Positions 2,100-60,819 of a DNA stretch of 64,000 nt are shown in pieces. The stretch comes from an uncultured Clostridia bacterium (GTDB taxonomy: Bacteria; Bacillota; Clostridia; Christensenellales; UBA1242). A model generated the notes under the pieces. The model saw only the letters and a program-made list of their open reading frames with translations, was not told the DNA's origin and ran no database searches. The translations under genes and the position numbers were made by a program. Within the stretch, counting starts at the first letter, position 1. Every line of letters begins with the position of its first letter. Where the stretch lies: positions 2,013 to 66,012 of the forward strand of contig CAMSQA010000005.1 of assembly GCA_947062475.1 (NCBI GenBank). The letters are read 5' to 3'.

Positions 2100-2360
2100 A
2101 AATTTTAGTCTTTTATTTAGTAAATTAAAATAATCTTTGCAAGAACAACAAAATTAATTGAATTTGTCAAATTTGTCTAAAATAGCATTTTTTTAAGATA
2201 ATATCTCTTAATTTATGATATTTTATTGGTTTTTTCGGCAATTTTTTATTTTTTTATAATTTTTTTTAAATACTTAATTTTTTTTGAGTATTTTTTTATT
2301 TTTAGATGGGTAGATTAAATCTGACCTATATATTATATTTAATATATATATTAAATTTGT

Positions 2361-2389
2361 TTGACTTATTTTTCTCAAAAAACTATAAT
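2361..2389 (+). promoter_or_regulatory. Near-consensus sigma-70 promoter for giant gene 1
   Basis: TTGACT (2361..2366), a 17-nt spacer, then TATAAT (2384..2389). It lies about 84 nt upstream of the ATG at 2473 and is preceded by about 200 nt of T-tract-rich DNA. Confidence 0.6.
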
Positions 2390-2472
2390 TTTACTAAGGC
2401 AATTAATGAATCTACAAGAAGTCAATTTGATGTTTAATTTCCTGCGAAATGGAAATTTTACGAGGAGGAGAT

Positions 2473-38030: not shown

Positions 38031-38045
38031 TTTTAAAGGAAAAAA

Positions 38046-38981: not shown

Positions 38982-39116
38982 TAATTTAATAAAAAATTAT
39001 TAATAATTGAGAAAAAATCATAAAATTTTTGTTTTTAAGTTTAAAAAATAAAGAATAGTATAACATTTTTAAGAACTTATTAACAAGTAATACATAAGAG
39101 GGGAGGTGAATATATT

Positions 39117-39767: not shown

Positions 39768-39770
39768 GCT

Positions 39771-41714: not shown

Positions 41715-42425
41715 ATGAGCACATGGTTTATAATTATTGGAGTAATTGCTGCATTATTGCTTTTATGTTTTTTGCTTGCTGTGGCAAACTACTCAGGCGA
41801 AAGATTTATGCAAAAGTATGAAGAAATGAATAATATCGAGGCAAAGACAAAACTTACATCAATTGACTTTGTAGATTTTGTGGTGAGAAGATTTATCAAA
41901 ACTCCGATTGAAATTGTTCAAATTTCAGCGGTGGCGGGTGACGCATACAGCAAAAGAAAACTCTTTTTATCGACTGATACCATTTATAAACCAAGTTTAG
42001 CATCATTTACTATTATTGCTCACGAACTTGGTCATGCTCTTCAAGACGTGAGTGGAAACAAATTAAAAAAACTCAACAGATTAAGACGACTTGGCAAATT
42101 TTTAGGTTGCCTTATGATGCCAAGTCTGCTCTCGGGACTTATATTATTGTTTTTTGGGGGCACATTATTTATAGTTGGCTGTTCTTTGCTGGCTTTTGGC
42201 GTTTTTATTTTCATTCTTGCTCTTATAGTGAAAATGATGACAATTTCAATAGAAAAAGATGCATCAAAAAATGCTATGACATTTTTGAAAGAAGTTTTTG
42301 AGGAAGAAGATCTTAAAAGATGTAAAAGATTTTTAAATGATGCGAGACTTACTTATTGGGCAGAATTTTTGAAAATAATTCTTTTTTGGACGGGTGTTTC
42401 AAAAAGAGGAAAGCTTTTTAATTAG
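41715..42425 (+). CDS. Membrane zinc metallopeptidase, YugP family (divergent copy)
   Basis: An N-terminal TM helix, the HExxH motif in IIAHELGHALQD and C-terminal TM helices are present. Confidence 0.75.
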   Translation: MSTWFIIIGVIAALLLLCFLLAVANYSGERFMQKYEEMNNIEAKTKLTSIDFVDFVVRRFIKTPIEIVQISAVAGDAYSKRKLFLSTDTIYKPSLASFTIIAHELGHALQDVSGNKLKKLNRLRRLGKFLGCLMMPSLLSGLILLFFGGTLFIVGCSLLAFGVFIFILALIVKMMTISIEKDASKNAMTFLKEVFEEEDLKRCKRFLNDARLTYWAEFLKIILFWTGVSKRGKLFN

Positions 42426-42433: not shown

Positions 42434-43150
42434 ATGGGGTTATATATCGGATATTTTGTATGCGGAATTGCCATAGTGGTGGCGATCATTATTGCACTAG
42501 TTGCACAAGGGAAAGTTTCAAGTGCTTTTAATCAATATAAAAAAGTAGATTCATCATTGGATATGACTGCTGCTCAACTTGCTGAAAGACTAGCGCAAGA
42601 ACACGGAGTAAATATACAAATTGGCTCTTGTCAAGGCACTCTTAGTGACCATTACAACCCAAGAACAAAAACTTTGAATATTTCACAAGGTAACTTTAAT
42701 TCAAAGTCGCTTGCCGCACATGCCATTGTCGCACATGAATTTGGACATGCCCTTCAAGATAAAGAAGGTTATCAAGCACTAAAAATAAGACAGGTTGTTG
42801 TCACTGCGACCAATTTTGTATCTTCATTATTGATCCCAATTATAATTGCTGGTCTTATAATGAATTTATTGTTTTTCATGAGTGCAGGCAGCATATTAAT
42901 TTATGTATATGTGGGCATATATGCTCTTTCTGTTATTGCAAGCCTTGTGACTTTGCCTGTTGAATACAATGCTTCAGCTAGGGCGAAAAAGATTTTATAC
43001 GAAATGGGCTGCACATCTTCTGAAGAAGTGGAAGGGACTGACAAACTTCTGAATGCAGCTGCAATGACATACGTAGCTTCACTAATCGTTTCACTTGCAT
43101 ATTTTTTAAGAATGCTATTCTTGCTTTTAGCAATTACACGAGACAGATAA
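42434..43150 (+). CDS. Membrane zinc metallopeptidase, YugP family
   Basis: LSDHYNPRTKTLNIS ... SLAAHAIVAHEFGHALQD is a close match to the YugP-type putative neutral zinc metallopeptidase pattern. It is a tandem paralog of the preceding gene. Confidence 0.8.
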   Translation: MGLYIGYFVCGIAIVVAIIIALVAQGKVSSAFNQYKKVDSSLDMTAAQLAERLAQEHGVNIQIGSCQGTLSDHYNPRTKTLNISQGNFNSKSLAAHAIVAHEFGHALQDKEGYQALKIRQVVVTATNFVSSLLIPIIIAGLIMNLLFFMSAGSILIYVYVGIYALSVIASLVTLPVEYNASARAKKILYEMGCTSSEEVEGTDKLLNAAAMTYVASLIVSLAYFLRMLFLLLAITRDR

Positions 43151-45018: not shown

Positions 45019-45104
45019 CTTTTTAATCATATATTTTATTTTAAACTTTACTTTTTAATTTTGTTGTGTTAATATATCAATTGATATACATATTAGGAGT
45101 AAAC

Positions 45105-45689
45105 ATGATAAAAACCTTTTATTCTTTAGATGGCTCATGTCAGCTTGAACTTGAGTTTGAAAAAGTTGACCTTATAAATTCTAAAGATATTGTTTCGCTG
45201 ATAAAAGATTTCACCAATGGAAATGTTGTAGTTGCCACGCGCGATAAAAGCGTTTTTGCAACAAAAGCACAAGAGGGGAGAGAAATTGACAATCGGATGC
45301 GTTATCAAATTGGTGGAAGATCTTATGTTTTGAAAAATGAACTTAAAAAGGTCAATAAACGAGATGTAGAATTGGATTCTATGCTTGCGTGTTTTAATAA
45401 TGGTTTCACTTTAATTATTAAAGGTGAAAAATTTAAGGAAAGTTTTAAGCAAACAGATGAAGTTTGGGAAATGTATGCACCTATTGACGAAAATAAGAAA
45501 TATATTAAAATAAACAAAAATATATATTTTATGACGCTTTGGGGAGAAATTGTAATTGCACCAAAAGGTTCATTTTTATGTATTGAAAACTTGAAAATGA
45601 GAGAGTTTTATATCGTGCCAAATTCATATTTTAAACAGGCATATACAATTAAGGAAGAGTTGGGGAAAATTGATAATTTATCAAAATAA
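45105..45689 (+). CDS. Orphan protein (194 aa), unknown function
   Basis: I prefer the ATG at 45105 (MIKTFYSLDG) because an AGGAG SD lies 5 nt upstream; the track start is 45066. It has no TM segment and no recognised motif. Confidence 0.65.
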   Translation: MIKTFYSLDGSCQLELEFEKVDLINSKDIVSLIKDFTNGNVVVATRDKSVFATKAQEGREIDNRMRYQIGGRSYVLKNELKKVNKRDVELDSMLACFNNGFTLIIKGEKFKESFKQTDEVWEMYAPIDENKKYIKINKNIYFMTLWGEIVIAPKGSFLCIENLKMREFYIVPNSYFKQAYTIKEELGKIDNLSK

Positions 45690-45744: not shown

Positions 45745-47325
45745 TTATTTTGAATATTTTTCAAGATATTCTTGATAAGTCCCAGTGAAGTCAATATACT
45801 TATTTTCATCGACAATATCAATAATTCTGTTGGCAACTGTTTCAATGATTTCTTGATCATGTGTGGCAAACAGCATATTGCCTCTAAAATTTACCATTCC
45901 TTTGTTGAGGGCTGTGATTGACTCAAGGTCAAGATGGTTTGTTGGCTCATCTAAAATTACAAGATTGCCTTGTTCAAGCATCATCTTTGCAAGCATACAT
46001 CTGACGCGTTCACCACCAGAAAGCACATTTGCTGGTTTTAAATTTTCTTCGCCAGTGAAAAGCATTCTGCCAAGCCAACTTCTAATATATGTTTCATTTT
46101 GGTCTTGTGAATATTGTCTTAGCCAATCAACAATAGAGGAGGTATTGCCTTCAAAAAATTCGTTGTTGTTTTGTGGGAGATTTGTCATTTTTATCGTTTT
46201 TCCAATAAACACTTGCCCATGATCAGGCTTTTCATTTCCAAGAATAATATTGAATAAAGTGGTTAAAATTTGGCTATTTTTTGCAAAAAATACCACTTTT
46301 TGTCCTTTTTCAATGTTGAAAGATAAATTTTTAAACATTCCAGTCTTTGTCAAATGGTCTACTTTTAATATTTCTTTGCCTATTTCTTGACTATATTCAA
46401 AGTTGATGTATGGATACTTTCTTGAAGAAGGTTTGATGTCCTCAATAGTAAGTCTTTCAAGCTCTCTCTTTCTGCTTGTTGCTTGCTTTGATTTTGAAGC
46501 ATTGGCTGAGAAACGGGCGATAAATTCTTTAAGTTCTTTCGCACGTTGTTCTGACTTCTTATTTTGGTCTTTCATCTGTCTCAAAATGAGCTGACTTGAT
46601 TCATACCAGAAATCATAATTTCCGATAAACATATTTATTTTTCCATAGTCAACGTCACAAATATGAGTGCAGACTTTATTTAAAAAGTGTCGGTTGTGCG
46701 ATACGATGATGACAATGTTTTCAAAATCCAAAAGATATTCTTCAAGCCAGCGAGAAGTTTTGAAATCAAGGTTGTTTGTAGGCTCGTCTAAAATTAGAAT
46801 ATCAGGATTTCCAAAAAGTGCTTGAGCAAGAAGTATTTTTACCTTTATTTTTGCGTCCAAACTGCCCATAAGGCTGTCAAACATGCTTTCTTCAATTCCC
46901 ATATTTTGAAGCAAACTTTTGGCTTCGCTTTCTGCCTCCCATCCACCAAGTTCAGCAAATTCAGTTTCAAGTTCTCCCGCTCTCAATCCATCTTCTTCAG
47001 AAAAGTCTGCTTTCATATAAAGTTCATCTTTTTCTTTTTGAATTTCCATCAGTCTTTTGTGACCAAGAAGCACAGTGTTTAAAACTGTTTCATTATCATA
47101 TGCATTTTGGTTTTGTGCCAAAACTGACATTCTTTCGCCAGGTGTAATTGAAATTTCGCCAGTATTTGGCTCTATTTCTCCAGTTATGATTTTTAAAAAT
47201 GTGGATTTACCCGCACCGTTTGCACCTATAATGCCATAACAATTTCCTTTTGTAAATTTTAAATTGACATCTTTATAAAGCACTCGTCCGCCAAATGCGA
47301 GTGAAATATTTGTAACTTGTAACAT
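45745..47325 (-). CDS. ABC-F family ATPase (two fused ABC domains, no TM domain; translation-factor type)
   Basis: I prefer the ATG at 47325 (MLQVTNISLAFGG) because an AAGGAG SD lies upstream; the track start is 47430. NBD1 has Walker A GANGAGKST. NBD2 has signature LSGGERVR. Both Walker B motifs are ILDEPTN. A charged inter-domain linker is present. NBD2 Walker A (FAKNSQILT) and the NBD1 signature (GSLDAKIKV) are degenerate. Confidence 0.88.
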   Translation of the reverse strand: MLQVTNISLAFGGRVLYKDVNLKFTKGNCYGIIGANGAGKSTFLKIITGEIEPNTGEISITPGERMSVLAQNQNAYDNETVLNTVLLGHKRLMEIQKEKDELYMKADFSEEDGLRAGELETEFAELGGWEAESEAKSLLQNMGIEESMFDSLMGSLDAKIKVKILLAQALFGNPDILILDEPTNNLDFKTSRWLEEYLLDFENIVIIVSHNRHFLNKVCTHICDVDYGKINMFIGNYDFWYESSQLILRQMKDQNKKSEQRAKELKEFIARFSANASKSKQATSRKRELERLTIEDIKPSSRKYPYINFEYSQEIGKEILKVDHLTKTGMFKNLSFNIEKGQKVVFFAKNSQILTTLFNIILGNEKPDHGQVFIGKTIKMTNLPQNNNEFFEGNTSSIVDWLRQYSQDQNETYIRSWLGRMLFTGEENLKPANVLSGGERVRCMLAKMMLEQGNLVILDEPTNHLDLESITALNKGMVNFRGNMLFATHDQEIIETVANRIIDIVDENKYIDFTGTYQEYLEKYSK

Positions 47326-47343
47326 TTTTTCTCCTTTCATGCA

Positions 47344-47383
47344 AGTATAACTTAAAAACAAATAATTGTCAATTAAAATTGAC
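47344..47383 (-). promoter_or_regulatory. Consensus promoter of the ABC-F gene with a palindrome over the -35
   Basis: Read on the minus strand: TTGACA (47372..47367), a 17-nt spacer, then TATACT (47349..47344). A perfect inverted repeat GTCAATT-AA-AATTGAC lies at 47368..47383. Confidence 0.55.
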
Positions 47384-47485
47384 TTTAAAGATATTAAAAA
47401 AGAAAAGAGAAAACTAAATATTTTCAGCAATTATATTTATAATATATATATTACTAAAATTATTTATTAAAAGGGTCAAATTTAT

Positions 47486-47514
47486 TTGCCTTTTTCATGG
47501 CAAAAATTTATACT
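47486..47514 (+). promoter_or_regulatory. Candidate promoter of giant gene 2
   Basis: TTGCCT (47486..47491), a 17-nt spacer, then TATACT (47509..47514). The spacer contains the inverted repeat TTTGCC ... GGCAAA. Confidence 0.5.
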
Positions 47515-47589
47515 TGTAATGAAGGATTTAATAAATATTAAATCAACTTACTACATTTTGATTTAGCCATATTTTTAGAGGGGTCATAA

Positions 47590-50500
47590 ATGAAAAAGAA
47601 AAATAAGAAGATTAAAGAAGAAAAGAAAAAAGAAGGAAAGTTTAAGTCTAAATGGAAAACGTGGATGACGGTTGTTGTGACAATAGCAAGCGTTTTTGCT
47701 ATTTCTGGTGCAACCGTGCTTGGCGTTTATCTTGCAGGTGGCTTCGATGAAAAAAATATCATGCCTGAAAGTATAGATTTTAATTATAATGACGGTTTGT
47801 TTAATGCTCAAAGAGGACAACTTGAAGTTGGTGAAGATTTTCAGCTTACTATCACAACTCCAACTCAAGAGGTGACTCGTAGAAAAGTTGAACTTTCTTT
47901 TGGGGGCGATGTAGTCATTGGATATGACCCAGAAAATAAACTTATTTCAAATGGTTCTATTCAAGTCCCTCAATATGTGTCAATAGGACGTCCTTTCAAT
48001 GTTCATCTTTTAAATGACCACCTTAAAGATGAAAATGGAAATGCGATAAAAGATACAAATGAAAATTATATAGACTGGATTGTCGGGGGAATCTCAACTC
48101 TTATTGCACGTTCTGAAAATATACATATTGGTTCAGCAAGCATAAAAATCGCAGTTGATGTGCCTGTTTATTCGACTGAAACGCTTGTTTATAACTCTAA
48201 AGGAGAACTCACAACACAGGTTGTGAGAAATGAAAGATTTACAGTTGAAACAAAATATATTCCTGCAGACAGTAAATACATGTTTTCTGATAATAAAAGC
48301 ACAATTGATTCATCTTTATGGAGAGAAAAACATTCTTACTATGAAGCAGAAAGCGAAGAAAACACAGTTGAGGCAGTTTATGACGGAAAGCATCAAGTGC
48401 ATTTTGTTGCTTCAAATCAGGCAGCTGATAATATAAAAATAAATGGCTATACATTTGAAACTGCAAAAGCTCAATTAGATTATGATGCTCTTGTTGGAGA
48501 TATTGATGGTGAATATTATTATACAGGCGTGCTTGGATATTTAAGAGACAACACTGACGACAGTGAGGACAACAAAATTGTCGAAAGTTCTTTTAAAACA
48601 ATTTCAATTGGCGAAGAAAATATTGGCAGATTTAATGTTTCATCACAAACAATAAAAATGAATGTTGAAACATCACTTAACTTGTATTTAAACAATTATC
48701 CATATCAAAGCAATAGCGATTATTTAGGTGTAAAAGTTTATTCATCCTCTGGTCTATTACTTGACAATCTCTTAAAAAATATTGTCATTTCATTTGATAA
48801 TAATGGTGTTGACCCAACTCAAGGTGAAAATAAGATTTTAAGCATTATTGGAGATAGTGAAATTCCTTATGTGGATATAGATGGAAAGCGTTTTTACAAA
48901 TCTAATTCTGAGGTAAATGACATACGTTTTTCAAATTGGAAATTAACCGCCACCCAAGCGATGGATTTAAAAATTAATGTTGCACTCCTTGTAAATGATG
49001 GGACAGAATTATTTGCAAGTCCAAGTGGTGAGGCAATGATTAGTCAGGTGAACCTGAAAATTTCAAAACATGAAGAAAAACCTCTTTCATGGACTGATCA
49101 AGATGACCTCAATGTGCTTTTAAATTATCAAATAGTTGATAATGAAAGCAAGATTGAAGCTGTCACAATTGACCTCAACCAGTTTGTATCTGTGCCTGAA
49201 GAAAATAAATATAAGGATACAGTATTCTTTGCTTGGTTTGGCGATGGTCCTCTTGCCGATTATATTGAAACTGCAAATAGAATTATAGGGGAAAATGGAT
49301 ATATTCTTGAAAGATCTGGCAGATATCAAGTAAATGCAAGCAGAACGTCAACTTTGTTTGCTCTCAATGGCTCTCGTATTACTCTTTATAATACAGGTGA
49401 ATTTGCTATTTATTTTGCAACAGTAAAACCAAATGGTGCGAATGAACTTTATGATATAGTTGAGATGAGCAGCACTTCAAAAAGTGTGACTTCAAAGACT
49501 GCGTTGTATAAAAATTCTATAAGCGATTATGAAATTGATGCGACAAACTTTAATGATGAAAATGAAAATGAAATTTCAATCAATCTTGGAAGTGACCTTA
49601 GCTTTAATTTACGTTTCACTATTGCACCTGAATCAGTGCCAGTATTTAAAGATGAATTTCAAAAAGGTTATGTTCGACCTTTAATCTATGATATTGCAGG
49701 AAATGATATATCAGAGTATTTTACATTCGGAGAAGGTCTTATTTTGACTGATGACGAAAAAAATGCTGTGATTGTAGAATATAAAGTTACAACAAAATCG
49801 TCTATTCAAATTGATAGTGCAAATGGAATTTATCTAGGCTATATCTCTCTCATCTATGATAACAATCAAGATCAAGCAATAGAATGGAAAAGAGAGACAA
49901 GTCTTATTTCAGAAAAGCTTGTCAATATTTACAAACCAAAAGCAGTAAATATTGAGATGAGCAACAAATCGGAAGTTTACAATGCCATTGCTGATGGCAA
50001 TAATAACACTATTACAGTTGACCAAAGTCTCACTCAAAATGGTGGATTTAATACTACAATCAAGGTTACTCTTCTTGACGGAACGATAAAAACCTTCAAC
50101 AATGTCACTGAATTTATCAATAATGTGGTAGGTGCAAATGGTGCAAACTTTGAAATTACTGACCAAAAAGGAAAGACAAATACACTTAGAAATCAGTGGA
50201 AATTTGCTGTCAGTGCAGGCAATTCTGCTATAATAAATTTTCTTACAAATGGACAATCTTTTGCATTTAGAAATACAAACTCAAATTCTTATATCCCTCT
50301 GACTCTTATTATAAAAAGCAATGACGGGGAATCAACACTTTCTGAAAATGGAAAGACTTTTGAAATAAAATTTGAAGTTAAAGCTACAGGAATTTCAAAA
50401 ATAAGATATGATTCAGAAAATCCAAAGACCTATGAAACAAGCGTTACTACTGAAAGCACTGATACATCAAAAGAAGTAATTGTAAAAAAATATGGTGCTG

Positions 50501-53500
50501 TAGGAAATGAATCGCAGTTTATAGAACTTAAAAGACTGATTGAACTTTATTGTTTGGATGCTGCTGGTAATGATGTGCCTTTTAGTCTCAATAGCGTTAA
50601 TTTTAAATTTACTTCTCAATATTTAAGCGAGACAAGACTTACAGACAGACAGGTGCTTGATCTGTTTGGCGAAGGTGGAATGCTTACTTTATTTGACAAC
50701 AACGATAATGAAATAATATTCACAAACACAGCTGATACAATCAGGCAGTCTCTTGCAAATAAATTGATTGGCAAGATAAAAATAAACAAAAATTTTGCAA
50801 ATCCTCACTATATGGAATTTGCTATGTTAGATTCAAGTGGTGCGGTGAATATAATGTTTTCATTGCAACTTCTTCAAAACTTTGCGGTTTCAAATGATAC
50901 TTATTTAGGTGACAATGCTGTTTGGGCTGGACAAAATCTTGAGCTTAAAAACACCGTGACAAATTTCAATCAAAATGCTCAGGGAAGTAGTCAGATCAAT
51001 GAAATTTTTGATAAAAACTTAAGTTATTATATAGTTGCAAATAATGAAGGAAGATATATTCTTTCTGCAAGTGAAACGAAGCCTTCAGGGGCAATTGGTG
51101 AATACAATGCCAATGCAAATACTATAAGGTTCTATGATTTTTGGGAAGTTCCAACAAAAAATTTCACTGTTTACATTCAACCAGAAGGGGCAAATAGTTT
51201 TGCTTTAAATCATCCAATTCAGTTTGAGGTAAAACGTGATATCAAGCTTACAGACAAGAAAGGCGTGTTTTATATAATTGGCGGTGGTGAAGTTGAAATT
51301 GAAGATTTTGTTTCTGTGACAAGGAATGATGACAAAGTCATTGACGGCGTTCAGTTTACTTATGATTTTGCTGATTATATAGAATATACGGATGGCAAAG
51401 TTGTAAAAAAAGAAAATTCTGATTTCTTCTTTGATTACAATCAAAAGTCACTTTTTACCACCTTGACAATTAAGAATGGAAGTATTGTATTCGGTGAAAT
51501 CAATGTTGAAATTAAGGTCATTGAAGAAGATATCTATTCTCTTTTAGCTTCAAGTTTTACGTTGGATAGCAATGATACAAAATTAAAACATCTCAAGCCA
51601 CAATCTCAAATGATTGGCGATATAAATTATATTATGTTTGCAGGAAATGCTGGTAAATACTGGAATTTCTCAAACCTTGCAGGATATGATTATCAAATTC
51701 TTCCTACTACTAGAGATTTTAATGGAAACTCTGATTTAAGAACTATTTATAGTGTAAGTGAAGGACAGCTTACATTCCAATCTAAAGTTGAACAAAATCT
51801 TTTATTTGGTCTTAATGACGAGGATTCAAATGAAAATCCATTTATCATATTGCAAATAAAAAGCAGTGGAAGCACACTTGCAACTTTGCATGTGCCATTA
51901 CTTGTTTCAAATATAGGCTATGACATAGTCGTTTATGAAAATTTTGATGGAGATGATAGATATAGGACAGAAAATGCATTATCAAAACCTGAAGAACTTA
52001 TTAAAAAGGGTATTTATAATGAAATAGAAGCTGGCAAACTCAGTCAAATTTTAAGTCAATATGACATGTTTGAAGTTATGGAAAGCCAAGAAGAAACCTC
52101 GTCAGCAATTTATCAGCCTATCAAAAAGGGCGGATTGTATACTATTGCAGGGTTTGAACAACAATTTAAAATTTACCCTCTTGAAAAAGATTATTCAAAT
52201 CTAGTTAATTCGACTTTTATTACCAAGATCTATTCTTCAAAAGCAGAAAATGAAGAAAATGAAGGAATATCAGTAGGTTATCTCACTCTAAACCATTTAA
52301 ATGAAAACATTGAAGAAGATGTCTTTATAGCTTTTGAATATGTTGTTGAATACTATGGCAAAACTCAGACCTTCTATTATGTATTGAAAGTAAAAGCTGA
52401 TGTTGAAGTGAAAGATGCTTTGTATGCGTATAATGGCGACAGTGAATATATATTTGGAGACAGCAGCAAAGTCAGTCAAATCAATCTTGATGCATTGTTT
52501 GATGAAAAAACTTTAAACAAAGACAAAAAGAGATTTAGTGTCAATAAAATCATCAATTTAAACAGTGATGCAAGTGAGGGACTGGATAGTAAATTGCAAC
52601 TAAGTCTTTCATCTGATGCAAAACTCATGTTTACTTATAATAAAAAAGAAATCATCAAAGATTATGTTTATGATATCAACAATAATACATTGCAAATTGA
52701 CTTAAATGATGAAAACCTATTTAATAGCGAAATCAAAAATGAAAATGGTTCTCAAATAAAAATAGCAATCTTTTCAGGTGATGCAATAGTTTCATATCAG
52801 GGTGAAAAAGTATTTGAAACATTGAAATACAAAAATGAAATCATTTCAGTCGAGGCTGGTGAAGATGGTGTAATGACAGACAGTGAACAATGGTCAAAGA
52901 CACTTGAAGCATACTTCTCAAGAGATTTCAGCACACTGTATTATAGACCTTTTGGTAAATATGCGAATTCCAAAATGACAATCAAAATTTTACATACCTA
53001 TCAGACAACTGAAGAAGAAAAGCTTTCTGTTGTAGGTGGCGATCAGATTTACACTTTGATATTAAATGAAGATTCTGAAATTTATGCAGTTCGTTTTACA
53101 GATAAAGGTGCAGCTAAAGAAACTGATGAATTTAATCTTACGATAAACAATGGTCAAAAATATAATTTAGTTGAAGGCAAAAATGTTTATTCAATGCAGG
53201 TTGAACTTCTTAAGAAAGAGGCAGGCAATGTCAATACAATTGTTCCTAATAAATTGGGAATTGGAATTTCTGACGGAAAAGATTATATTGAAAAAATAGA
53301 ATATAATTCTTCAACTGGAAAGCTTGACATTTTCCTTAAGGACTATATTGACTCAGATAAGACAATATCTCTTTCAGCTTATACTACTATGGGATATCTT
53401 GCTTCAATAAATGTTCAGCTTAAAGCAAACATAACTTACAATTGCAAAGGTGACGCATCATTTACAGGTGGCACAATACAAAACTTAAAGAATAGTATCT

Positions 53501-56500
53501 CCTTGGAAGAGGGCAATACACCTATCACAGATTATGATATAGCTTCAGTTGAAATTACTGGTGAAGGCAAAGATTTAGTAAAATTTGACTATCAAAATCA
53601 ACAACTTGTGATCAGTGATCTTATTTCAGATAAAAAAATCACAATCAGTTATGTTATAACCCTAAATGATAGTCAAGCTGACAGTTCAAGAGAATTTAGG
53701 TTCTCTCAAGAGTATATCCTGAAACAAAACGTCACTCCAAAAGCAAGTGTCGTTGTAAGTGACGAAACAATTGCTGGCACATCACATGAAATTAGTATTT
53801 ATGACTTATTTGAAGTAAACAGTGATAACAGTAAACTTTCAAATTCAACCTTTGAAATTTCAAGCACTTCTTCAAATCCTGCCTTCAATGGCATAAATAT
53901 TAATGGAGATATAGTTTATATAAATACAAATCATATTTCTAATAAATTGACATTGACGCTTACTTTAAAAGTGGCTCTGGTGTTTGAAAATGTCAAACAA
54001 ACATTTGACATTAATTATTCTTTTGTTGTTGCTCCAAGCGTTAAGCTGAATTCAAATTATCCAGTGCCAAATTCAAACGGTATGATGAAATTTGAATATA
54101 TTGACAATAGTTCAACTTTTGAAAATATTATCGACTTTATAAATGCAAATCCTATTTTTGGTGAGAAAAATAGAATTGAAATCTATCAAGGTCAAATTGA
54201 CACAACAGACAAAATTGCAAAATATACTACTAAAGTTTCTGAAATAGTTGACAAAAATTTGACAGTTATTTTAAATCGCAAAACTGACAATGCAAATATT
54301 GTTTTAATAGGCAAAGATAATACAGAGACGAATGTACCAGTAAATGGTCAAATTGCACTTGATAAAAATGTTAAGTTTACTCGCACAAGCAGTGGTGGAG
54401 ATGCTGAAATAGAGCTTAGCATAACTTATCAATCTGTCAATATTGTTTATAATATAAAACTTCTTGAAAAATCACTTTCAATGCAACTTAACACTGTTGA
54501 AAACTTCACATCACAAGGTGATTATCAAGGCTCTTCTGTCAATTACGAGAAAATTTATGTAGATAAGACAAATACCAAAGATATGTTTGCAGGCGAAAGA
54601 CTTGTCTATGCACAAATCAACGATTCAATAACTGACTATGCTGATGATGTTTATTACTTTGTGTTCAGTGAAGGAGAAAATGATAATACAAAACTCTATG
54701 CTTCTTATCCAATATATTTATCAGAAAAGGATCAAGGTGGAAACTTATATTATGATTTGGGAATTTCTTTTAAAGGAAAGAAATTTGCAGGACTCTATCT
54801 TGCTTCAAGTATTGAAAGCAATAAGATAGAAATAGGTGAAGATCGTCAGTTGAAAAATACCACAATGCTCCCTCAAAACCTTGCTAGAAATGTTTTAAAA
54901 TTTGCAAATGGCAATTATCAAGTTTCCCTTGCAAATAGGGCTCAGATGATCTATGGTGTTGATGAAAACGGGAAAGATATTTTGGTGGATTTTGAAAAAT
55001 ATGAGAAAATTTTCGGTGGTGATTTATTTGAATTAGAAACAACGACTGATTCTTCTCTTGATATAATAAAACAAAAGCCATTCAATTTAAGTTATCCAAA
55101 AGAAGATGGCTCAAATGCAATTGCTGAGTTTAACTTTAATTATTATTATATGGCAAGCTTTGATATTGATGTAAAAGAAAAAGTATCATCTTTAAGAAAC
55201 TTTGTCACAATTGAAGTGAATGACAAAAAAGATAGTTTAAATGAACTTTTGGGAATTTATCATCCAACGACAAACAGAAAAGTGACTGCATCTGATTTTA
55301 CAACTCCAAACTCTGGATTAAACTTTGAATTGATTTATTTTAGAAGTCAAACAGACTTAAAAAATGAAAGTGAAGTGACAAACATCTTACAAGATTATAT
55401 GAGCAGACATGATATAACAGCATTTAAACGTTTTGTTGAGGATGACGGAAACACTCCTGATAGTGATGCCACAATTAATGAATATATGTTTGTTGGTCCT
55501 GCAAAAAATGCAAACAGCAATATATATGATTATGAGCCTCTGCCTTTGGGTGCAAAAAATACAGGAGATTTTGTTCTTGGAAAAATCACTTATAATGTAG
55601 GTGACTTCAAAAAAGATTTCTATGCTGTGATCAAAATCATGCCAGATTATAATGTTGCTTTTAATGGCACTCATACAAACGGGCAAGATGAGATAGGAGA
55701 AGATGGTAAGGTTATTCGTTCAAATCTTGAACCTCGCAGAGTTGAATATTTAAGCAGTAAAGATCAAAATCAATATCAAGATTTTGCTCTGACTGGTGAC
55801 GGAACTGGCTTTATGACAATTTCTCATAGGAATGGAACAAGTGAAAAGAAAGATCTTTCAACTTCAAACTTTACAATCTCGATGCCAGTGGACAAAACAA
55901 TCGATGGTATCACATACAATGATAGATCAAACCTCAAAAATAAAATATTTTATAATATAGGAGATACGTATAATCTTTCAGGTAATTGGACTTGTGATGA
56001 AGTTTTAAATCTTTATGGATATAGCCAAAAATCAGCCATAGAATTTCAAAATATAAAAGCAGTAATTTTTGGAAATCAAAATTACTTTATTGAAGGTGAG
56101 GATGCTTATGGCTACAGGTTTAGATTATACTTTATGCTTAAAGCGACTCAAAATACACCTGAAATTACAAATACAATTACTATAACTGAAGAAGATTATA
56201 TCGATCTTGCAATAGACAAATTCAAGAGTTTAAGTTTCAAAAAGGATAGTGATGTTAAGTATATAATTACTGCAGAAGATCGTTCAATCCAATCAAATGA
56301 CTCAAAAGTTAATGTTTTAAAATTTGAAGGTATTGATGCATGGCAGTTTGTTGATGATTATACTAAACCTCAGCTAAATGATGAAAATAGGCAGTATTTA
56401 AATTTTAACAACAATACTATAGAAGAGCCAAACAAAGCATATAGTGCTAATAACAGTGGGACATATCAAATTGAAATCACTCAAGGTGAACAGTATTTAA

Positions 56501-58032
56501 ACTGGCCTATGATAAACAAACTTTCTGTGGATAGTATAAAACTCTATGATCCAAAGTCCAATATCTACCTTGCAAATGTAAATCAAAAAGGCGAAAAAAC
56601 TTCTAAGCAAGCTGATTCAACTGAGACTACAAAAAATTCTTCTTGGGCGTTTGCAACTGAAGGCACTGGATATTTTGGAGAACCAAACAAAGTTCGTTCT
56701 TTATATGGCAAGAAACAAAATGATGATGGCACCTCATATTATCAAGATGAACTTTTTGTAATGCCAAAACTTTCTGATACTTCGCTTTATGGCAATGGAG
56801 ATTCTGCATTGCTTAGACTTGTAGTCAGACTTAAATATTTCGATATTAACAGTGGTATCACAGAATATTGTGAATGTCCTGTCAATATTACTGTAAATCG
56901 CAAGGCTAAACTAGATCAAACAGAAAAAAGAGTAGTCCGTGATGGTGAAGAATTTGCACTGAGTGATAAAATTCAAGCATCAATTACAGATGATACTCAA
57001 ACGATTAAAGTGAAAAGTTATGTCAATGATACAATTGAAGTCCTTGTAAATGCACATGGCACAGCAACTTTTGATATGACCTTGACAAGAGCTGGTGAGG
57101 TTATTGCAAAACAGTCTATGTCCTTGTCGAATACAGGATCAAGCATTGCTATTACAAAATATGAATCACTTTCAGCTGCGTTTGGCACTTATGTAAAGCC
57201 AGGCGATATCGTAAATATTTCAAACAAAAATGATGTAAAAGGAATTTATTACATAACCAACATTCTTCCAGATACAAACGAGACTGATACAAACAATCCA
57301 GACACAATTGTGGAAAAACATGCTACGAAAGGAGTAATTGAAAACGATCAATTCACTATCAGCACTATTGAAAAAGATATTGTGTTTGTTGAAAATGCAA
57401 TGTTGCTTAATAGTTATAGTTATGGCATAACCAAACACTATATTGCACAATGTGAATTTACTCCAAAATCTTCTAATATTCCTACAGAAGCGTCACGTGC
57501 AGAAACAGCAACTTACGATTATCGTGTTTCTGCGAATTATGAAGTCACAGGTTATGTTTATAATCTCGAAAGAAATTATGATGGCGAAATTGGAACGTGT
57601 ATAGTTTCAACATATAATGAAAATGCAGAAGTTGGGAAAAAGTGGACTGAAGCAAAATTTTCAAACTGGAGCAATGCATTTAAGCTTTATCAAGGTTATA
57701 CACCAAGTGGCGGAAAGATTGAAGTTAATAGATCAGAGGAGTTAATTTTAACAGACGAAAACGTAAAGAAGTATCTTTCATTCAGACTGGATGATAAGGG
57801 TGGCGAAACAACTTTGGGTAATGCTACAATTGATACAGAAGACGGCACAATTCAACTTAGTGACAATTTCAGACCAAACCAATTCATAAGAGTTGTTGTG
57901 CTTATGAAAGTGAGCGGAGAAGATAGAGATATTACAAAAATAGATAATGAAGGGAAAGTAATACTTGGCAGACTTAATTTAAGCACAAAGATTAGAATAA
58001 TTACAACATCACCAGAGCAGCCTAATTCATAA
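47590..58032 (+). CDS. Giant N-terminally membrane-anchored surface protein (3,480 aa), no recognisable domain
   Basis: One uninterrupted 10.4-kb ORF. A GAGGGG SD lies 6 nt upstream. There is a Lys-rich 25-aa N-tail followed by a single TM helix (WMTVVVTIASVFAISGATVLGVYLAGG). The rest is non-repetitive and rich in N/I/K/E/S/T/Y. I saw no GLUG turns, no HExxH and no LPXTG. Confidence 0.9.
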   Translation: MKKKNKKIKEEKKKEGKFKSKWKTWMTVVVTIASVFAISGATVLGVYLAGGFDEKNIMPESIDFNYNDGLFNAQRGQLEVGEDFQLTITTPTQEVTRRKVELSFGGDVVIGYDPENKLISNGSIQVPQYVSIGRPFNVHLLNDHLKDENGNAIKDTNENYIDWIVGGISTLIARSENIHIGSASIKIAVDVPVYSTETLVYNSKGELTTQVVRNERFTVETKYIPADSKYMFSDNKSTIDSSLWREKHSYYEAESEENTVEAVYDGKHQVHFVASNQAADNIKINGYTFETAKAQLDYDALVGDIDGEYYYTGVLGYLRDNTDDSEDNKIVESSFKTISIGEENIGRFNVSSQTIKMNVETSLNLYLNNYPYQSNSDYLGVKVYSSSGLLLDNLLKNIVISFDNNGVDPTQGENKILSIIGDSEIPYVDIDGKRFYKSNSEVNDIRFSNWKLTATQAMDLKINVALLVNDGTELFASPSGEAMISQVNLKISKHEEKPLSWTDQDDLNVLLNYQIVDNESKIEAVTIDLNQFVSVPEENKYKDTVFFAWFGDGPLADYIETANRIIGENGYILERSGRYQVNASRTSTLFALNGSRITLYNTGEFAIYFATVKPNGANELYDIVEMSSTSKSVTSKTALYKNSISDYEIDATNFNDENENEISINLGSDLSFNLRFTIAPESVPVFKDEFQKGYVRPLIYDIAGNDISEYFTFGEGLILTDDEKNAVIVEYKVTTKSSIQIDSANGIYLGYISLIYDNNQDQAIEWKRETSLISEKLVNIYKPKAVNIEMSNKSEVYNAIADGNNNTITVDQSLTQNGGFNTTIKVTLLDGTIKTFNNVTEFINNVVGANGANFEITDQKGKTNTLRNQWKFAVSAGNSAIINFLTNGQSFAFRNTNSNSYIPLTLIIKSNDGESTLSENGKTFEIKFEVKATGISKIRYDSENPKTYETSVTTESTDTSKEVIVKKYGAVGNESQFIELKRLIELYCLDAAGNDVPFSLNSVNFKFTSQYLSETRLTDRQVLDLFGEGGMLTLFDNNDNEIIFTNTADTIRQSLANKLIGKIKINKNFANPHYMEFAMLDSSGAVNIMFSLQLLQNFAVSNDTYLGDNAVWAGQNLELKNTVTNFNQNAQGSSQINEIFDKNLSYYIVANNEGRYILSASETKPSGAIGEYNANANTIRFYDFWEVPTKNFTVYIQPEGANSFALNHPIQFEVKRDIKLTDKKGVFYIIGGGEVEIEDFVSVTRNDDKVIDGVQFTYDFADYIEYTDGKVVKKENSDFFFDYNQKSLFTTLTIKNGSIVFGEINVEIKVIEEDIYSLLASSFTLDSNDTKLKHLKPQSQMIGDINYIMFAGNAGKYWNFSNLAGYDYQILPTTRDFNGNSDLRTIYSVSEGQLTFQSKVEQNLLFGLNDEDSNENPFIILQIKSSGSTLATLHVPLLVSNIGYDIVVYENFDGDDRYRTENALSKPEELIKKGIYNEIEAGKLSQILSQYDMFEVMESQEETSSAIYQPIKKGGLYTIAGFEQQFKIYPLEKDYSNLVNSTFITKIYSSKAENEENEGISVGYLTLNHLNENIEEDVFIAFEYVVEYYGKTQTFYYVLKVKADVEVKDALYAYNGDSEYIFGDSSKVSQINLDALFDEKTLNKDKKRFSVNKIINLNSDASEGLDSKLQLSLSSDAKLMFTYNKKEIIKDYVYDINNNTLQIDLNDENLFNSEIKNENGSQIKIAIFSGDAIVSYQGEKVFETLKYKNEIISVEAGEDGVMTDSEQWSKTLEAYFSRDFSTLYYRPFGKYANSKMTIKILHTYQTTEEEKLSVVGGDQIYTLILNEDSEIYAVRFTDKGAAKETDEFNLTINNGQKYNLVEGKNVYSMQVELLKKEAGNVNTIVPNKLGIGISDGKDYIEKIEYNSSTGKLDIFLKDYIDSDKTISLSAYTTMGYLASINVQLKANITYNCKGDASFTGGTIQNLKNSISLEEGNTPITDYDIASVEITGEGKDLVKFDYQNQQLVISDLISDKKITISYVITLNDSQADSSREFRFSQEYILKQNVTPKASVVVSDETIAGTSHEISIYDLFEVNSDNSKLSNSTFEISSTSSNPAFNGININGDIVYINTNHISNKLTLTLTLKVALVFENVKQTFDINYSFVVAPSVKLNSNYPVPNSNGMMKFEYIDNSSTFENIIDFINANPIFGEKNRIEIYQGQIDTTDKIAKYTTKVSEIVDKNLTVILNRKTDNANIVLIGKDNTETNVPVNGQIALDKNVKFTRTSSGGDAEIELSITYQSVNIVYNIKLLEKSLSMQLNTVENFTSQGDYQGSSVNYEKIYVDKTNTKDMFAGERLVYAQINDSITDYADDVYYFVFSEGENDNTKLYASYPIYLSEKDQGGNLYYDLGISFKGKKFAGLYLASSIESNKIEIGEDRQLKNTTMLPQNLARNVLKFANGNYQVSLANRAQMIYGVDENGKDILVDFEKYEKIFGGDLFELETTTDSSLDIIKQKPFNLSYPKEDGSNAIAEFNFNYYYMASFDIDVKEKVSSLRNFVTIEVNDKKDSLNELLGIYHPTTNRKVTASDFTTPNSGLNFELIYFRSQTDLKNESEVTNILQDYMSRHDITAFKRFVEDDGNTPDSDATINEYMFVGPAKNANSNIYDYEPLPLGAKNTGDFVLGKITYNVGDFKKDFYAVIKIMPDYNVAFNGTHTNGQDEIGEDGKVIRSNLEPRRVEYLSSKDQNQYQDFALTGDGTGFMTISHRNGTSEKKDLSTSNFTISMPVDKTIDGITYNDRSNLKNKIFYNIGDTYNLSGNWTCDEVLNLYGYSQKSAIEFQNIKAVIFGNQNYFIEGEDAYGYRFRLYFMLKATQNTPEITNTITITEEDYIDLAIDKFKSLSFKKDSDVKYIITAEDRSIQSNDSKVNVLKFEGIDAWQFVDDYTKPQLNDENRQYLNFNNNTIEEPNKAYSANNSGTYQIEITQGEQYLNWPMINKLSVDSIKLYDPKSNIYLANVNQKGEKTSKQADSTETTKNSSWAFATEGTGYFGEPNKVRSLYGKKQNDDGTSYYQDELFVMPKLSDTSLYGNGDSALLRLVVRLKYFDINSGITEYCECPVNITVNRKAKLDQTEKRVVRDGEEFALSDKIQASITDDTQTIKVKSYVNDTIEVLVNAHGTATFDMTLTRAGEVIAKQSMSLSNTGSSIAITKYESLSAAFGTYVKPGDIVNISNKNDVKGIYYITNILPDTNETDTNNPDTIVEKHATKGVIENDQFTISTIEKDIVFVENAMLLNSYSYGITKHYIAQCEFTPKSSNIPTEASRAETATYDYRVSANYEVTGYVYNLERNYDGEIGTCIVSTYNENAEVGKKWTEAKFSNWSNAFKLYQGYTPSGGKIEVNRSEELILTDENVKKYLSFRLDDKGGETTLGNATIDTEDGTIQLSDNFRPNQFIRVVVLMKVSGEDRDITKIDNEGKVILGRLNLSTKIRIITTSPEQPNS

Positions 58033-58070
58033 AAAAAATTTAGATAAAAAAATACTTAAAAGGAGTGAAA

Positions 58071-59528
58071 ATGTTTGGCGAGATTTCAAAAATAGTAATT
58101 ACAATTGTGGCATGTGTCAACTTTTTCCTTCTTGTAGGTATGATTTTCCTTGAAAGAAGAAAACCTGAAAATATTATTGCTTGGCTTACAATTTTGACTT
58201 TTCTTCCTATATTTGGTTTTTTGCTTTATATTATTTTCGGAAGCGGACTTAGTGTGCGGACAAGACGCATGATAAAGAAAAAGGCGGTGTCAGAACGTGA
58301 TATCATCAGAAATATAGATGGTATTCAAACACTTGATGAAGCAAGAATTGATGATACGCTTATTGAACATCGAGAACTTGTTTCAATGTGCTATTCATAT
58401 GGTTCTTATCCGCTTCCTGGAAATGATATCAAAGTTTTCACAAGTGGCAATTCAAAGATTGAAGCTTTAAAAAAAGATCTGCTTAATGCCAAAAACTCAA
58501 TAAATATCGAATATTATATCTTTGCCAATGATAAGATTGGCAAGGAAATAATGGATATTTTGTGCATGAAAGCAAAAGAGGGCGTTGATGTCAAACTTAT
58601 ATATGACTCAATAGGTTCTCGCAAGGCATCAAGGCGTTTCTTCAAAAAGTTGGAACAGGCTGGAGGACAGATCGGAGAATTTTTTCCACCTTTTATGCAT
58701 ATAAGGCTTATCAATTTAAAGCTCAACTATCGAAATCACAGAAAAATTGTCATAATTGATGGCAAAATAGGTTATACTGGTGGTGTGAATATCCGTGATG
58801 ACCACATGAGCCGTGATAAAAAACTTTACCCATGGCGTGATACTCACATTAGAATTGAGGGTAGTGGTGTTTATGGCCTTCAAAACGTATTTTTAGATGA
58901 TTGGCGATATTGTCAAAATGACAACACACCTCCAAGATTATATCTTGAAAATGGTTATTTCCCAAGTCCAAAACTTTGTGGTGACGCAACTGTTCAAGTT
59001 CTGGCATCAGGACCTGATAGTCAAGTGCAAAGAATAAAGGAAACTTTTGTAAAGATGATCACATGTGCAAAAGATAAGGTATACATCCAAACGCCATATT
59101 TTATACCTGATGATGTTTTCTTTGCAAGTTTAAGAATAGCTGTAAAAAGTGGAGTCGATGTAAGAATCATGGTTCCAAGAAAACCTGATAAAAAAACAGT
59201 TTATCTAGCAACCCTTTCATATCTCAAAGAAATGGCAGAAATAGGTGTAAAAATCTATCTCTACAAAGGGTTTTTACACAGCAAGGCGTTGATAATAGAT
59301 GACAACCTTTTATCAATTGGCACTTGCAATATGGATAATCGTTCATTTGCATTAAACTTTGAAAATACTGTGCTTATTTATTCAAAAAAACTTAATAAAC
59401 AACATCAAGAAATATTTGAAGAAGACGTCAAACATTCTGTTGAAGTAGGCGCAAATTATTTTCAAAAGAAAAGCTTTCTTACAAAGATGTTGCAAGCGAT
59501 TATGCGTTTGTTATCATCATTGTTTTAA
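58071..59528 (+). CDS. cls: Cardiolipin synthase
   Basis: Two N-terminal TM helices and two HKD motifs (HRKIVIIDGKIGYTGGVN and HSKALIIDDNLLSIGTCNMDNRS) are present. I prefer the ATG at 58071 because an AAGGAG SD precedes it. The gene starts 38 nt after giant gene 2. Confidence 0.9.
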   Translation: MFGEISKIVITIVACVNFFLLVGMIFLERRKPENIIAWLTILTFLPIFGFLLYIIFGSGLSVRTRRMIKKKAVSERDIIRNIDGIQTLDEARIDDTLIEHRELVSMCYSYGSYPLPGNDIKVFTSGNSKIEALKKDLLNAKNSINIEYYIFANDKIGKEIMDILCMKAKEGVDVKLIYDSIGSRKASRRFFKKLEQAGGQIGEFFPPFMHIRLINLKLNYRNHRKIVIIDGKIGYTGGVNIRDDHMSRDKKLYPWRDTHIRIEGSGVYGLQNVFLDDWRYCQNDNTPPRLYLENGYFPSPKLCGDATVQVLASGPDSQVQRIKETFVKMITCAKDKVYIQTPYFIPDDVFFASLRIAVKSGVDVRIMVPRKPDKKTVYLATLSYLKEMAEIGVKIYLYKGFLHSKALIIDDNLLSIGTCNMDNRSFALNFENTVLIYSKKLNKQHQEIFEEDVKHSVEVGANYFQKKSFLTKMLQAIMRLLSSLF

Positions 59529-59571: not shown

Positions 59572-60819
59572 TTATTGTGGGATTCTTCCTAGATCAACAT
59601 TGTCAACTTTTCTTGAACGCAATGTTTTTATAGGATGTTCAGAATCTTGAACACGATAATCTTGTCTAAATTTTTTAATATGGTCGTTTATTACCTTGTG
59701 AGAAGGCATTTTTTCTACATTTTTGATAAATTTGTGTTGATAAACGAAGAAGTCAGCTTTTTCAGGTAATTTTTTGATATTGATATAACTTTCTCGATCT
59801 TCTGTGTTGTTGACAGTTTTTGCAATAATTTCTCTTATATAATCTTTTTGTGGTTTGAAGTTGATAAGTTCTGGAAATTCACCAACAGGAATTACCTGTT
59901 GCCAATCTTTTTTCTCATATTTTTGCAATAGTTTTACAGCTTCATGAAGATGAGCAAGTTCTTGTTCATAACACATCAACCAAATTTGTTTTATTTTTTC
60001 GTCAACTTCATCATTAAGCATTGAATAATATAGATAACATTCGATATATTCATGCATTAAAAGTTCTTCGAAAGGTGTTGCATTAGGGTCGATAAGAGAA
60101 CCATATTCTGTGACATGTTCCTCTTCCACCATCGCAATTTCACTGTAAATTTCTCGACCAACTTTATTTTTGTAGAATGCACCTAGGTTCATATAATAGT
60201 TCATAGTTTGTTGTTCAGCAGCAGTGATTATAGAGACATCACACATTGCCAGTGGGTCTGCAGTCTTGTTGCAGATATGATGTTTGACAGTGTCATAAGG
60301 ATGACGAGGATGAGCAACTGTTGGTCTTGCGGGCATGATTTCAGTATAACTGCCTACATACTTTTCAGCATGTTCGCCCATGTCTGTTTCAAGCAAATTG
60401 GCATATCTATAAAGATGGTCAAAATCCTCAAGAAGGGCAAAGTCCAGTGCATTTTTTACATTTTTGTCAGTCTGTCTGCGTGCCAAAAGTGCAGTCAAAT
60501 CAACTGCAAGTTGCTCATATCCAATTGTTGTTTGCAAAATATTTTCATCAGCTGGTTTTAGTGCGGCGATGACTTTTTGTTGCTGTTGCTCAAGCCTTCG
60601 CATAAGAGCGACTCTTCTTCTTGCATCATTGTCAGGGCAGTGTCTGTTGAAGTGATGTTTCGACCAAACAGCTTCATATTCAGTGCCATTCATTAAGATG
60701 CATCGCACTCTTGTATAAGGGTCAACTTCATTTTTGTTGTAAGGTTTTGGTGAAAGCATTTTCATACTCATGATTGTGCTTTCAATTCTTTTTGGTTTTT
60801 CTAAAAAGGGATTAATCAT
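59572..60819 (-). CDS. Ferritin-like (di-iron carboxylate type) protein, 415 aa, unknown function
   Basis: Four E/ExxH-type helices are present: ALLEDFDHLYR, ITAAEQQTMNYY, AMVEEEHVTEYG and CYEQELAHLHE. A GGAGG SD is present. There is no signal peptide or TM segment. Confidence 0.7.
   Translation of the reverse strand: MINPFLEKPKRIESTIMSMKMLSPKPYNKNEVDPYTRVRCILMNGTEYEAVWSKHHFNRHCPDNDARRRVALMRRLEQQQQKVIAALKPADENILQTTIGYEQLAVDLTALLARRQTDKNVKNALDFALLEDFDHLYRYANLLETDMGEHAEKYVGSYTEIMPARPTVAHPRHPYDTVKHHICNKTADPLAMCDVSIITAAEQQTMNYYMNLGAFYKNKVGREIYSEIAMVEEEHVTEYGSLIDPNATPFEELLMHEYIECYLYYSMLNDEVDEKIKQIWLMCYEQELAHLHEAVKLLQKYEKKDWQQVIPVGEFPELINFKPQKDYIREIIAKTVNNTEDRESYINIKKLPEKADFFVYQHKFIKNVEKMPSHKVINDHIKKFRQDYRVQDSEHPIKTLRSRKVDNVDLGRIPQ

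Follow-up and report, generated by a model that had tools for sequence, protein, structure and literature searches.

The giant gene analysed here lies on the forward strand of a 64,000-nucleotide stretch (the window) of contig CAMSQA010000005.1, from an uncultured Clostridia bacterium, and is followed by cls, the gene for a cardiolipin synthase with two PLD domains (Table 1). An earlier reading, made from the letters of the DNA without database searches (the sequence-only reading), had described its 3,480-residue product as membrane anchored and truly unannotatable. We find that the gene is intact, that it has been maintained by purifying selection at a conserved locus, and that two thirds of the protein is predicted to be a string of immunoglobulin-like (Ig-like) domains behind a single N-terminal transmembrane helix.

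Table 1. Positions of the giant gene, its parts and other genes of the window (AF2, AlphaFold2; dN/dS, ratio of nonsynonymous to synonymous substitution rates; ORF, open reading frame)
Feature	Position	Strand	Basis
Promoter-like site	47486..47514	+	9/12 match in consensus scan, kept in four species
Conserved leader block CTTACTACATTTTGATTTAGCC	47547..47568	+	alignment of leaders
Shine-Dalgarno sequence AGAGGGG	47577..47583	+	sequence reading
Giant gene, 3,480 codons and TAA	47590..58032	+	ORF, 19 orthologues, dN/dS 0.12
Lys-rich, positively charged tail, residues 1-21	47590..47652	+	sequence; basic N-terminal tail family-wide
Single transmembrane signal-anchor helix, residues 22-52 (predicted)	47653..47745	+	hydropathy, AF2, family conservation
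Membrane-proximal beta domains, residues 53-240, with invariant AVDVPVY (188-194)	47746..48309	+	conservation, AF2
Residues 53-1200, about ten predicted Ig-like domains, some with helical inserts	47746..51189	+	AF2, Foldseek
Middle section, residues 1201-2280	51190..54429	+	tile-profile hhalign, family conservation
Distal third, residues 2281-3480, predicted beta-rich with well-defined mutual domain arrangement	54430..58029	+	AF2, Foldseek, conservation
cls, cardiolipin synthase, two PLD domains	58065..59528	+	Pfam PLDc_2, PLDc, PLDc_N
ABC-F ATPase gene	45745..47430	-	
orf207	45066..45689	+	
orf415	59572..60819	-	
Zn_peptidase_2, first copy	41715..42425	+	
Zn_peptidase_2, second copy	42434..43150	+	
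Apparent start of a division/cell-wall cluster	35490..41651	+	N-terminal sequences only
Giant gene 1, 6,284 residues	2449..21303	+	

The giant gene and its conserved locus

The gene opens with ATG and runs uninterrupted to its TAA stop. Its base composition is native to the window, which has ∼32% GC throughout, and a 10.4-kb open frame cannot arise by chance at such a GC content. The Shine-Dalgarno sequence ends 6 nt before the ATG, and purine-rich sites of the GAGG type stand at the same position in four aligned orthologous leaders; the long open frame and its ribosome-binding site are thus as the sequence-only reading had described them.

That reading had also given the gene its own promoter, a claim that stands in part. 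Because the upstream ABC-F gene is read from the opposite strand, the 159-nt spacer between the two genes would hold a divergent promoter region. It contains a promoter-like site, TTGCCT-17-TATACT, of which both hexamers and the spacing are kept in four species, those of the window and of loci L003, L004 and L008 (L and P numbers are our own handles for loci and proteins). On the other hand, a 9/12 match is found at near the chance rate in this AT-rich DNA (86 sites found, 65 expected), and the claim of a promoter is plausible but weak. Between this site and the ribosome-binding site lies a leader block of 22 nt, CTTACTACATTTTGATTTAGCC, which is largely kept in four of five aligned species (again the window, L003, L004 and L008, the last without the first three bases). 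The block has no match in Rfam, and an Rfam scan of the whole window reported no family at gathering score and no riboswitches, tRNAs or rRNAs.

When one genome for each GTDB species was scanned with a pattern, 25 loci were recovered. Their assemblies are all uncultured and bear the titles Clostridia, Eubacteriales, Firmicutes or Christensenellaceae/Christensenella, and those whose titles reveal an origin come from gut (the mouse-gut MGBC series and a water-deer colon). The orthologue is complete at 19 of these loci, where it is a single open frame with a stop and encodes 3,201-3,763 residues; at the others it is cut by contig or locus ends. The 19 orthologues are colinear with the window protein over its entire length and share 26-64% identity with it, and both their length and the synteny around them, including the downstream cls, are kept. 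Between the strains of L006 and L007 (dS=0.15), dN/dS is 0.12 overall and 0.03-0.31 in each 400-codon window, compared to 0.015 for the adjacent cls. The giant gene is under purifying selection yet diverges fast. Indeed, the flanking proteins are 68-97% identical over the 19 complete loci (ABC-F 83-97%, GlyRS 74-95%, cls 68-94%), and because the identity of the giant protein is so much lower than that of its neighbours, the gene is by far the fastest evolver of the syntenic block. In the most divergent locus, L027, identity is 78% for ABC-F and 56% for GlyRS.

A single orthologue departs from this pattern of intact frames in a way that would fit a decaying, non-functional ORF or an artefact of assembly. 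In L001 (GCA_948829815.1, contig CAQLQJ010000022.1, 3100-3280), the frame shifts by 1 nt close to codon 982, where the DNA is AT-rich, and this leaves two ORFs of 982 and 2,580 residues. However, the 90% cluster of the same species holds 38 near-identical members, of which the 15 listed are all 3,558-3,559 residues long, and one exact sequence occurs on 23 contigs. Because these near-identical proteins are intact, the break in L001 is probably an assembly error, or else a rare variant. Given also the 19 complete frames from different species, the low dN/dS overall and in every window, and the native base composition, decay or artefact as an account of the giant gene is effectively refuted. A distant homologue at L002:1793-5315 (ERZ28633640 scaffold_9653, protein P0003) is 27% identical and matches by BLASTP only to residues 17-628; its last ∼100 residues resemble out-of-frame junk, the next ORF opens with an AAA/OLD-type ATPase-like ‘GSNQIMILLL’, and L002 may be a chimeric contig or carry an insertion that truncates the gene.

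The window protein is no one-off. An exhaustive HMMER search with a profile of residues 1-1200 against 1.84 billion cluster representatives returned 253 clusters (50% identity) at E≤1e-3, of which 204 still pass a cut-off of E≤1e-30; the family thus numbers 250 sequence clusters or more. Among the 150 clusters listed, nearly all are 3,100-5,670 residues long and are matched at the N-terminus, and the full-length family hidden Markov model spans positions ∼1-3414 in most long members. The window protein shares the features that define the family, namely a basic tail, a transmembrane helix with an invariant Gly, the AVDVPVY motif and ∼3,400 aligned positions. The sole names on record for members are ‘hypothetical protein [Clostridia bacterium]’ (MCI8555685.1, MBO5022541.1), and our literature searches found no paper describing this family of giant proteins. 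The family profile had no match among all PDB sequences at E≤10, and 20 members compared individually with Pfam (14, and 6 more distant) gave nothing significant except LRR_5/LRR_8, models of leucine-rich repeats (LRRs), in P0113.

In almost all loci the gene order is a PBP-like orf626, two Zn_peptidase_2 paralogues, GlyRS (-), a small fast-evolving ORF, ABC-F (-), the giant gene (+) and cls (+), often followed by orf415 (-) and then a U32 peptidase gene; the block from GlyRS to cls has this order and these strands in the window too. In each locus that reaches that far, cls trails the giant gene by 0-240 nt on the same strand. The gap in the window is 32 nt, and because these genes share a strand and no terminator-like hairpin occurs in the gap, the two are likely to be co-transcribed. 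The most distant members listed keep cls as well: the gap is 36 nt behind P0113 in L028, and in L029 the stop of P0218 overlaps the start of cls (L029:23013), an overlap that suggests translational coupling; the genes beyond cls differ in these two loci.

Predicted membrane anchor and fold

The giant protein is rich in Asn, Ile, Ser, Lys, Thr and Glu and holds 7 Cys (0.2%) and 22 His. Over its full length, the only strongly hydrophobic 19-residue windows start at residues ∼24-35 (Kyte-Doolittle score up to 2.2), and the next best, near residue 1430, scores just 1.46. AF2 places a helix at residues 22-48, matching the hydrophobic segment, and the basic tail before it is found across the family. 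These observations agree with the type II-like anchor, a Lys-rich tail and one transmembrane helix, that had been read from the sequence. Because of the positive-inside rule we infer an N-in, C-out topology with the Lys-rich tail in the cytoplasm, and the remainder of the protein would be exposed at the surface. A cleavable signal peptide seems unlikely: the hydrophobic stretch extends over ∼27 residues, and residues 42-52, which would follow the only plausible cleavage site, are among the most conserved.

The helix carries a conserved motif, TVLGVYLxGGF. Gly40 is invariant (137 of 137 family sequences), T42, L44, Y47, L48, G50, G51 and F52 are conserved at 69-84% (L44 84%, Y47 77%, F52 81%), and Pro59, just beyond, is conserved at 96%. 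Because this conservation exceeds what a passive anchor needs, it suggests that the helix packs against another, either its own counterpart or that of a partner.

What the sequence-only reading had looked for in vain in the protein is indeed absent. Searches of Pfam, NCBIfam and PDB sequences with the giant protein gave nothing above noise, and the metal motif HExxH does not occur in it. There is no LPXTG with a C-terminal hydrophobic segment, so the protein is not of the sortase-anchored class. Self-BLASTP detected no internal repeat at E<100, Tandem Repeats Finder reported trivial short arrays only, and comparison of tile against tile with phmmer and hhalign gave faint signals only, the best pair reaching 87% probability over 29 columns. 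No Big or other adhesin-repeat Pfam model reached its cut-off in the window protein and 13 orthologues, with isolated sub-threshold matches in single members; nor did Pfam find an SLH or CWB2 domain in the window protein and its orthologues, or an LRR in the window protein. A loose GLUG-type pattern has a single trivial match, GVLG at residue 313. GLUG turns had been noted in giant gene 1, the other giant gene of the window, which has no sequence relationship to the gene studied here and starts with a lipoprotein-type signal (…GAGLLSAC|GK), a mode of anchoring unlike that of the present protein.

We modelled two thirds of the protein with AF2 using family alignments, residues 1-1200 (19 sequences) and residues 2281-3480 (35 sequences). 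The first model (mean predicted local distance difference test score, pLDDT, 82.6; predicted template modelling score, pTM, 0.38) consists of the N-terminal helix followed by ∼85 beta strands and a few inserted helices, and residues 53-1200 form roughly ten distinct units of sandwich size, and the model does not fix how these are oriented to one another. In a Foldseek search of the PDB this model had 216 matches at E≤1e-3, all to arrays of Ig-like domains. The top match was Nup210 (7r5k_10, E=7e-19, 10% identity), and the S-layer proteins Sap, SbsB, EA1 and SbsC were matched at 1.4e-15 to 9e-10 with 8-11% identity. Other matches were titin I65-I70, giant chains of the ciliary central apparatus, contactins, desmoglein, alpha-2-macroglobulin and the base of the Aureispira grappling-hook protein GhpA. 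Identities for this model were 6-11% (5-11% for the two models together) and whole-chain TM-scores were low, as expected because such multidomain chains are flexible.

The second model has similar local confidence (mean pLDDT 84.1) and a much higher pTM, 0.69, and is beta-rich with several long strands (12-16 residues). Searches of the PDB and of viral libraries with it returned only arrays of Ig, cadherin or FN3 type. Thus, from two confident models and three Foldseek searches, an Ig-like array is the predicted body of the protein for residues 53-1200 and 2281-3480, in line with the strings of beta-sandwich domains that the sequence-only reading had proposed. This predicted fold implies no specific family: profile and structure searches assigned the protein to no particular adhesin or S-layer family, and only the generic Ig-like fold class is common to the matches. 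The protein is nonetheless no longer unannotatable, now that a family, a predicted fold class and a topology can be given for it.

The middle section, residues 1201-2280, is colinear and conserved in the family and has no Pfam or PDB match in the scans of family members and with the family profile. Faint profile similarity to modelled beta modules is seen in hhalign comparisons of tile profiles for residues 1521-1640 (with 2602-2720, the 87% pair above) and within residues 1900-2140 (1957-2136 with 1036-1155, 82% probability), and residues 1201-1500 match no modelled module. As we read the alignments, a strand-Pro-strand motif, FYxVxKVxPDVxV and variants, recurs near residues 190, 1600, 2150 and 2675 and appears to mark domain junctions. 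If the middle section is built like the rest, as we infer, the whole chain would have ∼30 domains.

Conservation along the chain and C-terminal extensions

The transmembrane helix and the two domains that follow it (residues 1-240) are the best conserved; identity is ∼0.5 over residues 1-250 and 0.2-0.4 farther out, with further peaks of conservation at 1561-1620, 2281-2340, 2641-2700, 2821-2880 and 3421-3480. Similarly, dN/dS between L006 and L007 climbs from 0.03-0.08 to 0.16-0.31 toward the C-terminus; every window that starts at codon 2001 or later falls in the higher range except the one at codons 2401-2800 (0.12).

In 59 relatives the chain continues for more than 200 residues (up to 1,800) past the point at which the window protein ends. 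These C-terminal extensions are of at least 14 unrelated types (229-1,804 residues); one type without a Pfam match is common to 40 of the 59, and several others are unique. The extension of P0113 (L028:6001-19077) consists of BspA-type LRRs (LRR_5, E=6e-133, plus LRR_8), and that of P0108 clusters with it. P0142 has an extension of 796 residues in which internal repeats can be seen by eye, and P0218 has 1,804 extra residues without a known domain.

Ends that vary in this manner, with so many unrelated types, would fit a delivery platform for an exchangeable C-terminal effector, by the logic of polymorphic toxins and CdiA, in which a conserved giant stalk would display modules for interbacterial or host interactions. 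We nevertheless think such a platform highly unlikely. The window protein has no extension at all, the extensions that were scanned are LRRs or lack any Pfam match and include no toxin domain, no pre-toxin motif was recognised, and the next gene is cls in all loci and never a small immunity gene. The combination of a conserved base and a variable modular tip would instead be expected of a protein that is rooted in the envelope and faces outward. An identity among orthologues so far below that of the flanking genes is, likewise, what exposed surface proteins usually show.

Possible roles at the cell envelope

We favour, by somewhat better than an even chance, a surface fibre or coat of ∼30 unique Ig-like domains with a type II anchor, and we hold the structural part of this reading with higher confidence; the function would be adhesive or that of a coat. 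The Lys-rich tail would stay in the cytoplasm and the helix at residues ∼22-52 would hold the protein in the membrane. Residues 53-240 would lie at the membrane/cell-wall zone, probably touching conserved envelope components, and the rest of the ∼3,430-residue extracellular chain would project through and past the wall as a fibre or coat. Its faster-evolving distal part could contact the outside (host mucus, particles, other cells) or shield the cell, and relatives would add extra modules to the distal end, such as the BspA-type LRR in one lineage. This reading is supported by the one hydrophobic helix after a basic tail with no second hydrophobic segment, by Foldseek, whose best matches are without exception Ig-like arrays of an extracellular, lumenal or structural kind, and by the extension of P0113, since the BspA-type LRR is a known surface ligand-binding module.

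Several observations weigh against the surface fibre or coat. A single copy, strict colinearity and the same locus in each related genome examined are commoner in core structural components than in accessory adhesins. The pTM of the distal third suggests that its architecture is defined and that it is not a floppy stalk. The tip of the window protein has no recognisable binding module. A signal peptidase might cleave the protein at a possible site, SGA|T (residues 39-42). Finally, the middle section could contain a functional domain that is not Ig-like, a prospect that is conceivable because residues 1201-1500 resemble no modelled part.

Some of the same observations fit an envelope scaffold or S-layer-like coat, in which the protein would be a core structural element of an ordered layer or belt on the membrane, much like an S-layer lattice or the ring of membrane-tethered Ig domains in Nup210, and not an adhesin; the probably co-transcribed cls would tie it functionally to the organisation of membrane lipids. 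The Foldseek matches to Nup210 at the top and to Sap, SbsB, EA1 and SbsC point this way, as do the compactness of the distal third, a fixed locus with a single copy in each genome across the clade, and domains that are each unique and orthologously conserved, in an order that is fixed across 137 members. Moreover, the invariant Gly40 and the spacing of small residues in the transmembrane helix could mediate helix-helix packing, and cls adjoins the giant gene even in the most distant members listed, with the stop/start overlap in L029. However, we consider this scaffold unlikely, though it is the main rival: Pfam found no SLH, CWB2 or other wall-binding module, 3,480 residues is far above the size of known S-layer subunits, the sequence diverges fast, and the adjacency of cls may be general synteny, as the genes for the PBP, Zn-peptidases, GlyRS and ABC-F are likewise syntenic. 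A functional link between the giant gene and cls is a lead rather than a finding, because the whole region is syntenic. A more specific proposal, that the ∼30 Ig-like domains and a self-associating Gly40 helix form a Nup210-like belt or coat that works with cls as a lineage-defining organiser of the envelope rather than an adhesin, strikes us as decidedly doubtful. If true, it would represent an exoskeleton or ruler of a kind new to bacteria, one that shapes the membrane and envelope across an uncultured clade of gut Clostridia.

The tight and conserved linkage to cls could also be explained if the protein were a bridge-like lipid transporter of the AsmA/TamB/YhdP type that moves phospholipid, namely cardiolipin made by the cls product, off the membrane. 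The AsmA-like layout is an N-terminal signal-anchor followed by a very long beta-rich body, and the giant protein resembles it. Nonetheless, no AsmA, TamB or DUF748-type Pfam match was obtained in the 20 members scanned, the models have the many short strands typical of discrete sandwiches, and no groove protein of the TamB/YhdP/VPS13 type is among the best 50 Foldseek matches of either model (residues 1-1200 and 2281-3480). The lineage, of Clostridia/Christensenellaceae type, would moreover be generally monoderm, with no second membrane to supply, and we attach very little probability to a lipid bridge.

Returning to the surface fibre or coat, a giant beta-sandwich protein on the bacterial surface is a well-known kind of object. 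The giant repeat adhesins (Salmonella SiiE and the RTX/Bap type) run to multiple thousands of residues and carry binding modules at their distal ends, and the giant protein is like them in its size and surface location as predicted, in a body made of a beta-sandwich chain and in its fast divergence. It differs from them in that they have tandem repeats recognised by Pfam and are exported by a type I secretion system or held by an LPXTG or C-terminal anchor, whereas its domains are unique, without a Pfam match in 20 members (except the LRR of P0113), and its anchor is an N-terminal signal-anchor. Staphylococcus Ebh, which spans the Gram-positive envelope and is thought to aid envelope integrity and adhesion, is likewise a single giant membrane-tethered protein. 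Ebh, however, is mostly built of helical repeats (FIVAR/GA), is highly repetitive and is anchored at its C-terminus, in contrast to a non-repetitive beta-sandwich chain with an N-terminal anchor.

The Bacillales S-layer proteins Sap, EA1, SbsB and SbsC are also Ig-like arrays on a Firmicute surface, but number ∼800-1,200 residues, lack a transmembrane helix and are held by SLH domains or by binding secondary cell wall polymers. Nup210 (gp210) combines one transmembrane helix with many non-identical Ig-like domains in a long chain, from which a defined architecture is built; it is eukaryotic, belongs to the nuclear pore and has its transmembrane helix at the C-terminus, and the likeness, as judged from the model, is certainly an analogy of fold class and not demonstrable homology. 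In the BspA-type proteins the LRR is the known element, and here it occurs as an add-on at the tip of P0113 (and, by clustering, P0108), with none in the window protein.

By description, without sequence comparison, another parallel is offered by the giant orphan proteins of Apilactobacillus (Lactobacillus) kunkeei, also encoded by lineage-specific giant genes of a host-associated Firmicute. These have been described as novel extracellular proteins with only weak structural similarity to adhesins, and each resembles the homologue at its own position in other strains more closely than the co-located copies of its own genome (PMC4494060). They are encoded in a tandem array of several paralogues, some of which are absent in some strains (PMC4494060), unlike the one giant gene per genome at a fixed locus described here. 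The present family is distinct in having no sequence tie to described families, in being non-repetitive, in its N-terminal signal-anchor and in being a single-copy core gene linked to cls.

The family, with members of 3,100-5,670 residues, is thus unnamed, lacks a Pfam or NCBIfam model and includes no protein that has been characterised, although the gene is intact and in the same place in each related gut metagenome-assembled genome examined and takes up 10-17 kb of genome per copy. It is probably a major determinant of the surface that the clade, met here in mouse-gut and ruminant-colon assemblies, presents toward host, phages and neighbours. Surface proteins of giant size and Ig-like fold are familiar, and no new mechanism is indicated so far. 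The definition of family, topology and fold provides a handle for annotation and possibly a new Pfam clan, residues 53-240 and the distal third are offered as expressible fragments, and the tight linkage of the giant gene to cls is a testable lead on envelope biology.

Other genes near the giant gene were noted in passing. Neither orf207 nor orf415 belongs to a Pfam or NCBIfam family; orf207 evolves fast (35-68% identity where detected), with ORFs of 165-186 residues at its position in L028 and L029, and orf415, convergent to cls, is 52-94% identical. About 6 kb before the giant gene lies what is apparently the start of a division/cell-wall cluster (rsmH-like, a small ORF and the PBP-like orf626), and the nearness of the two may be coincidental synteny. 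The tandem Zn_peptidase_2 paralogues (putative neutral zinc metallopeptidases) are kept as a pair in nearly all related loci, and the first copy is far more divergent from the model than the second.

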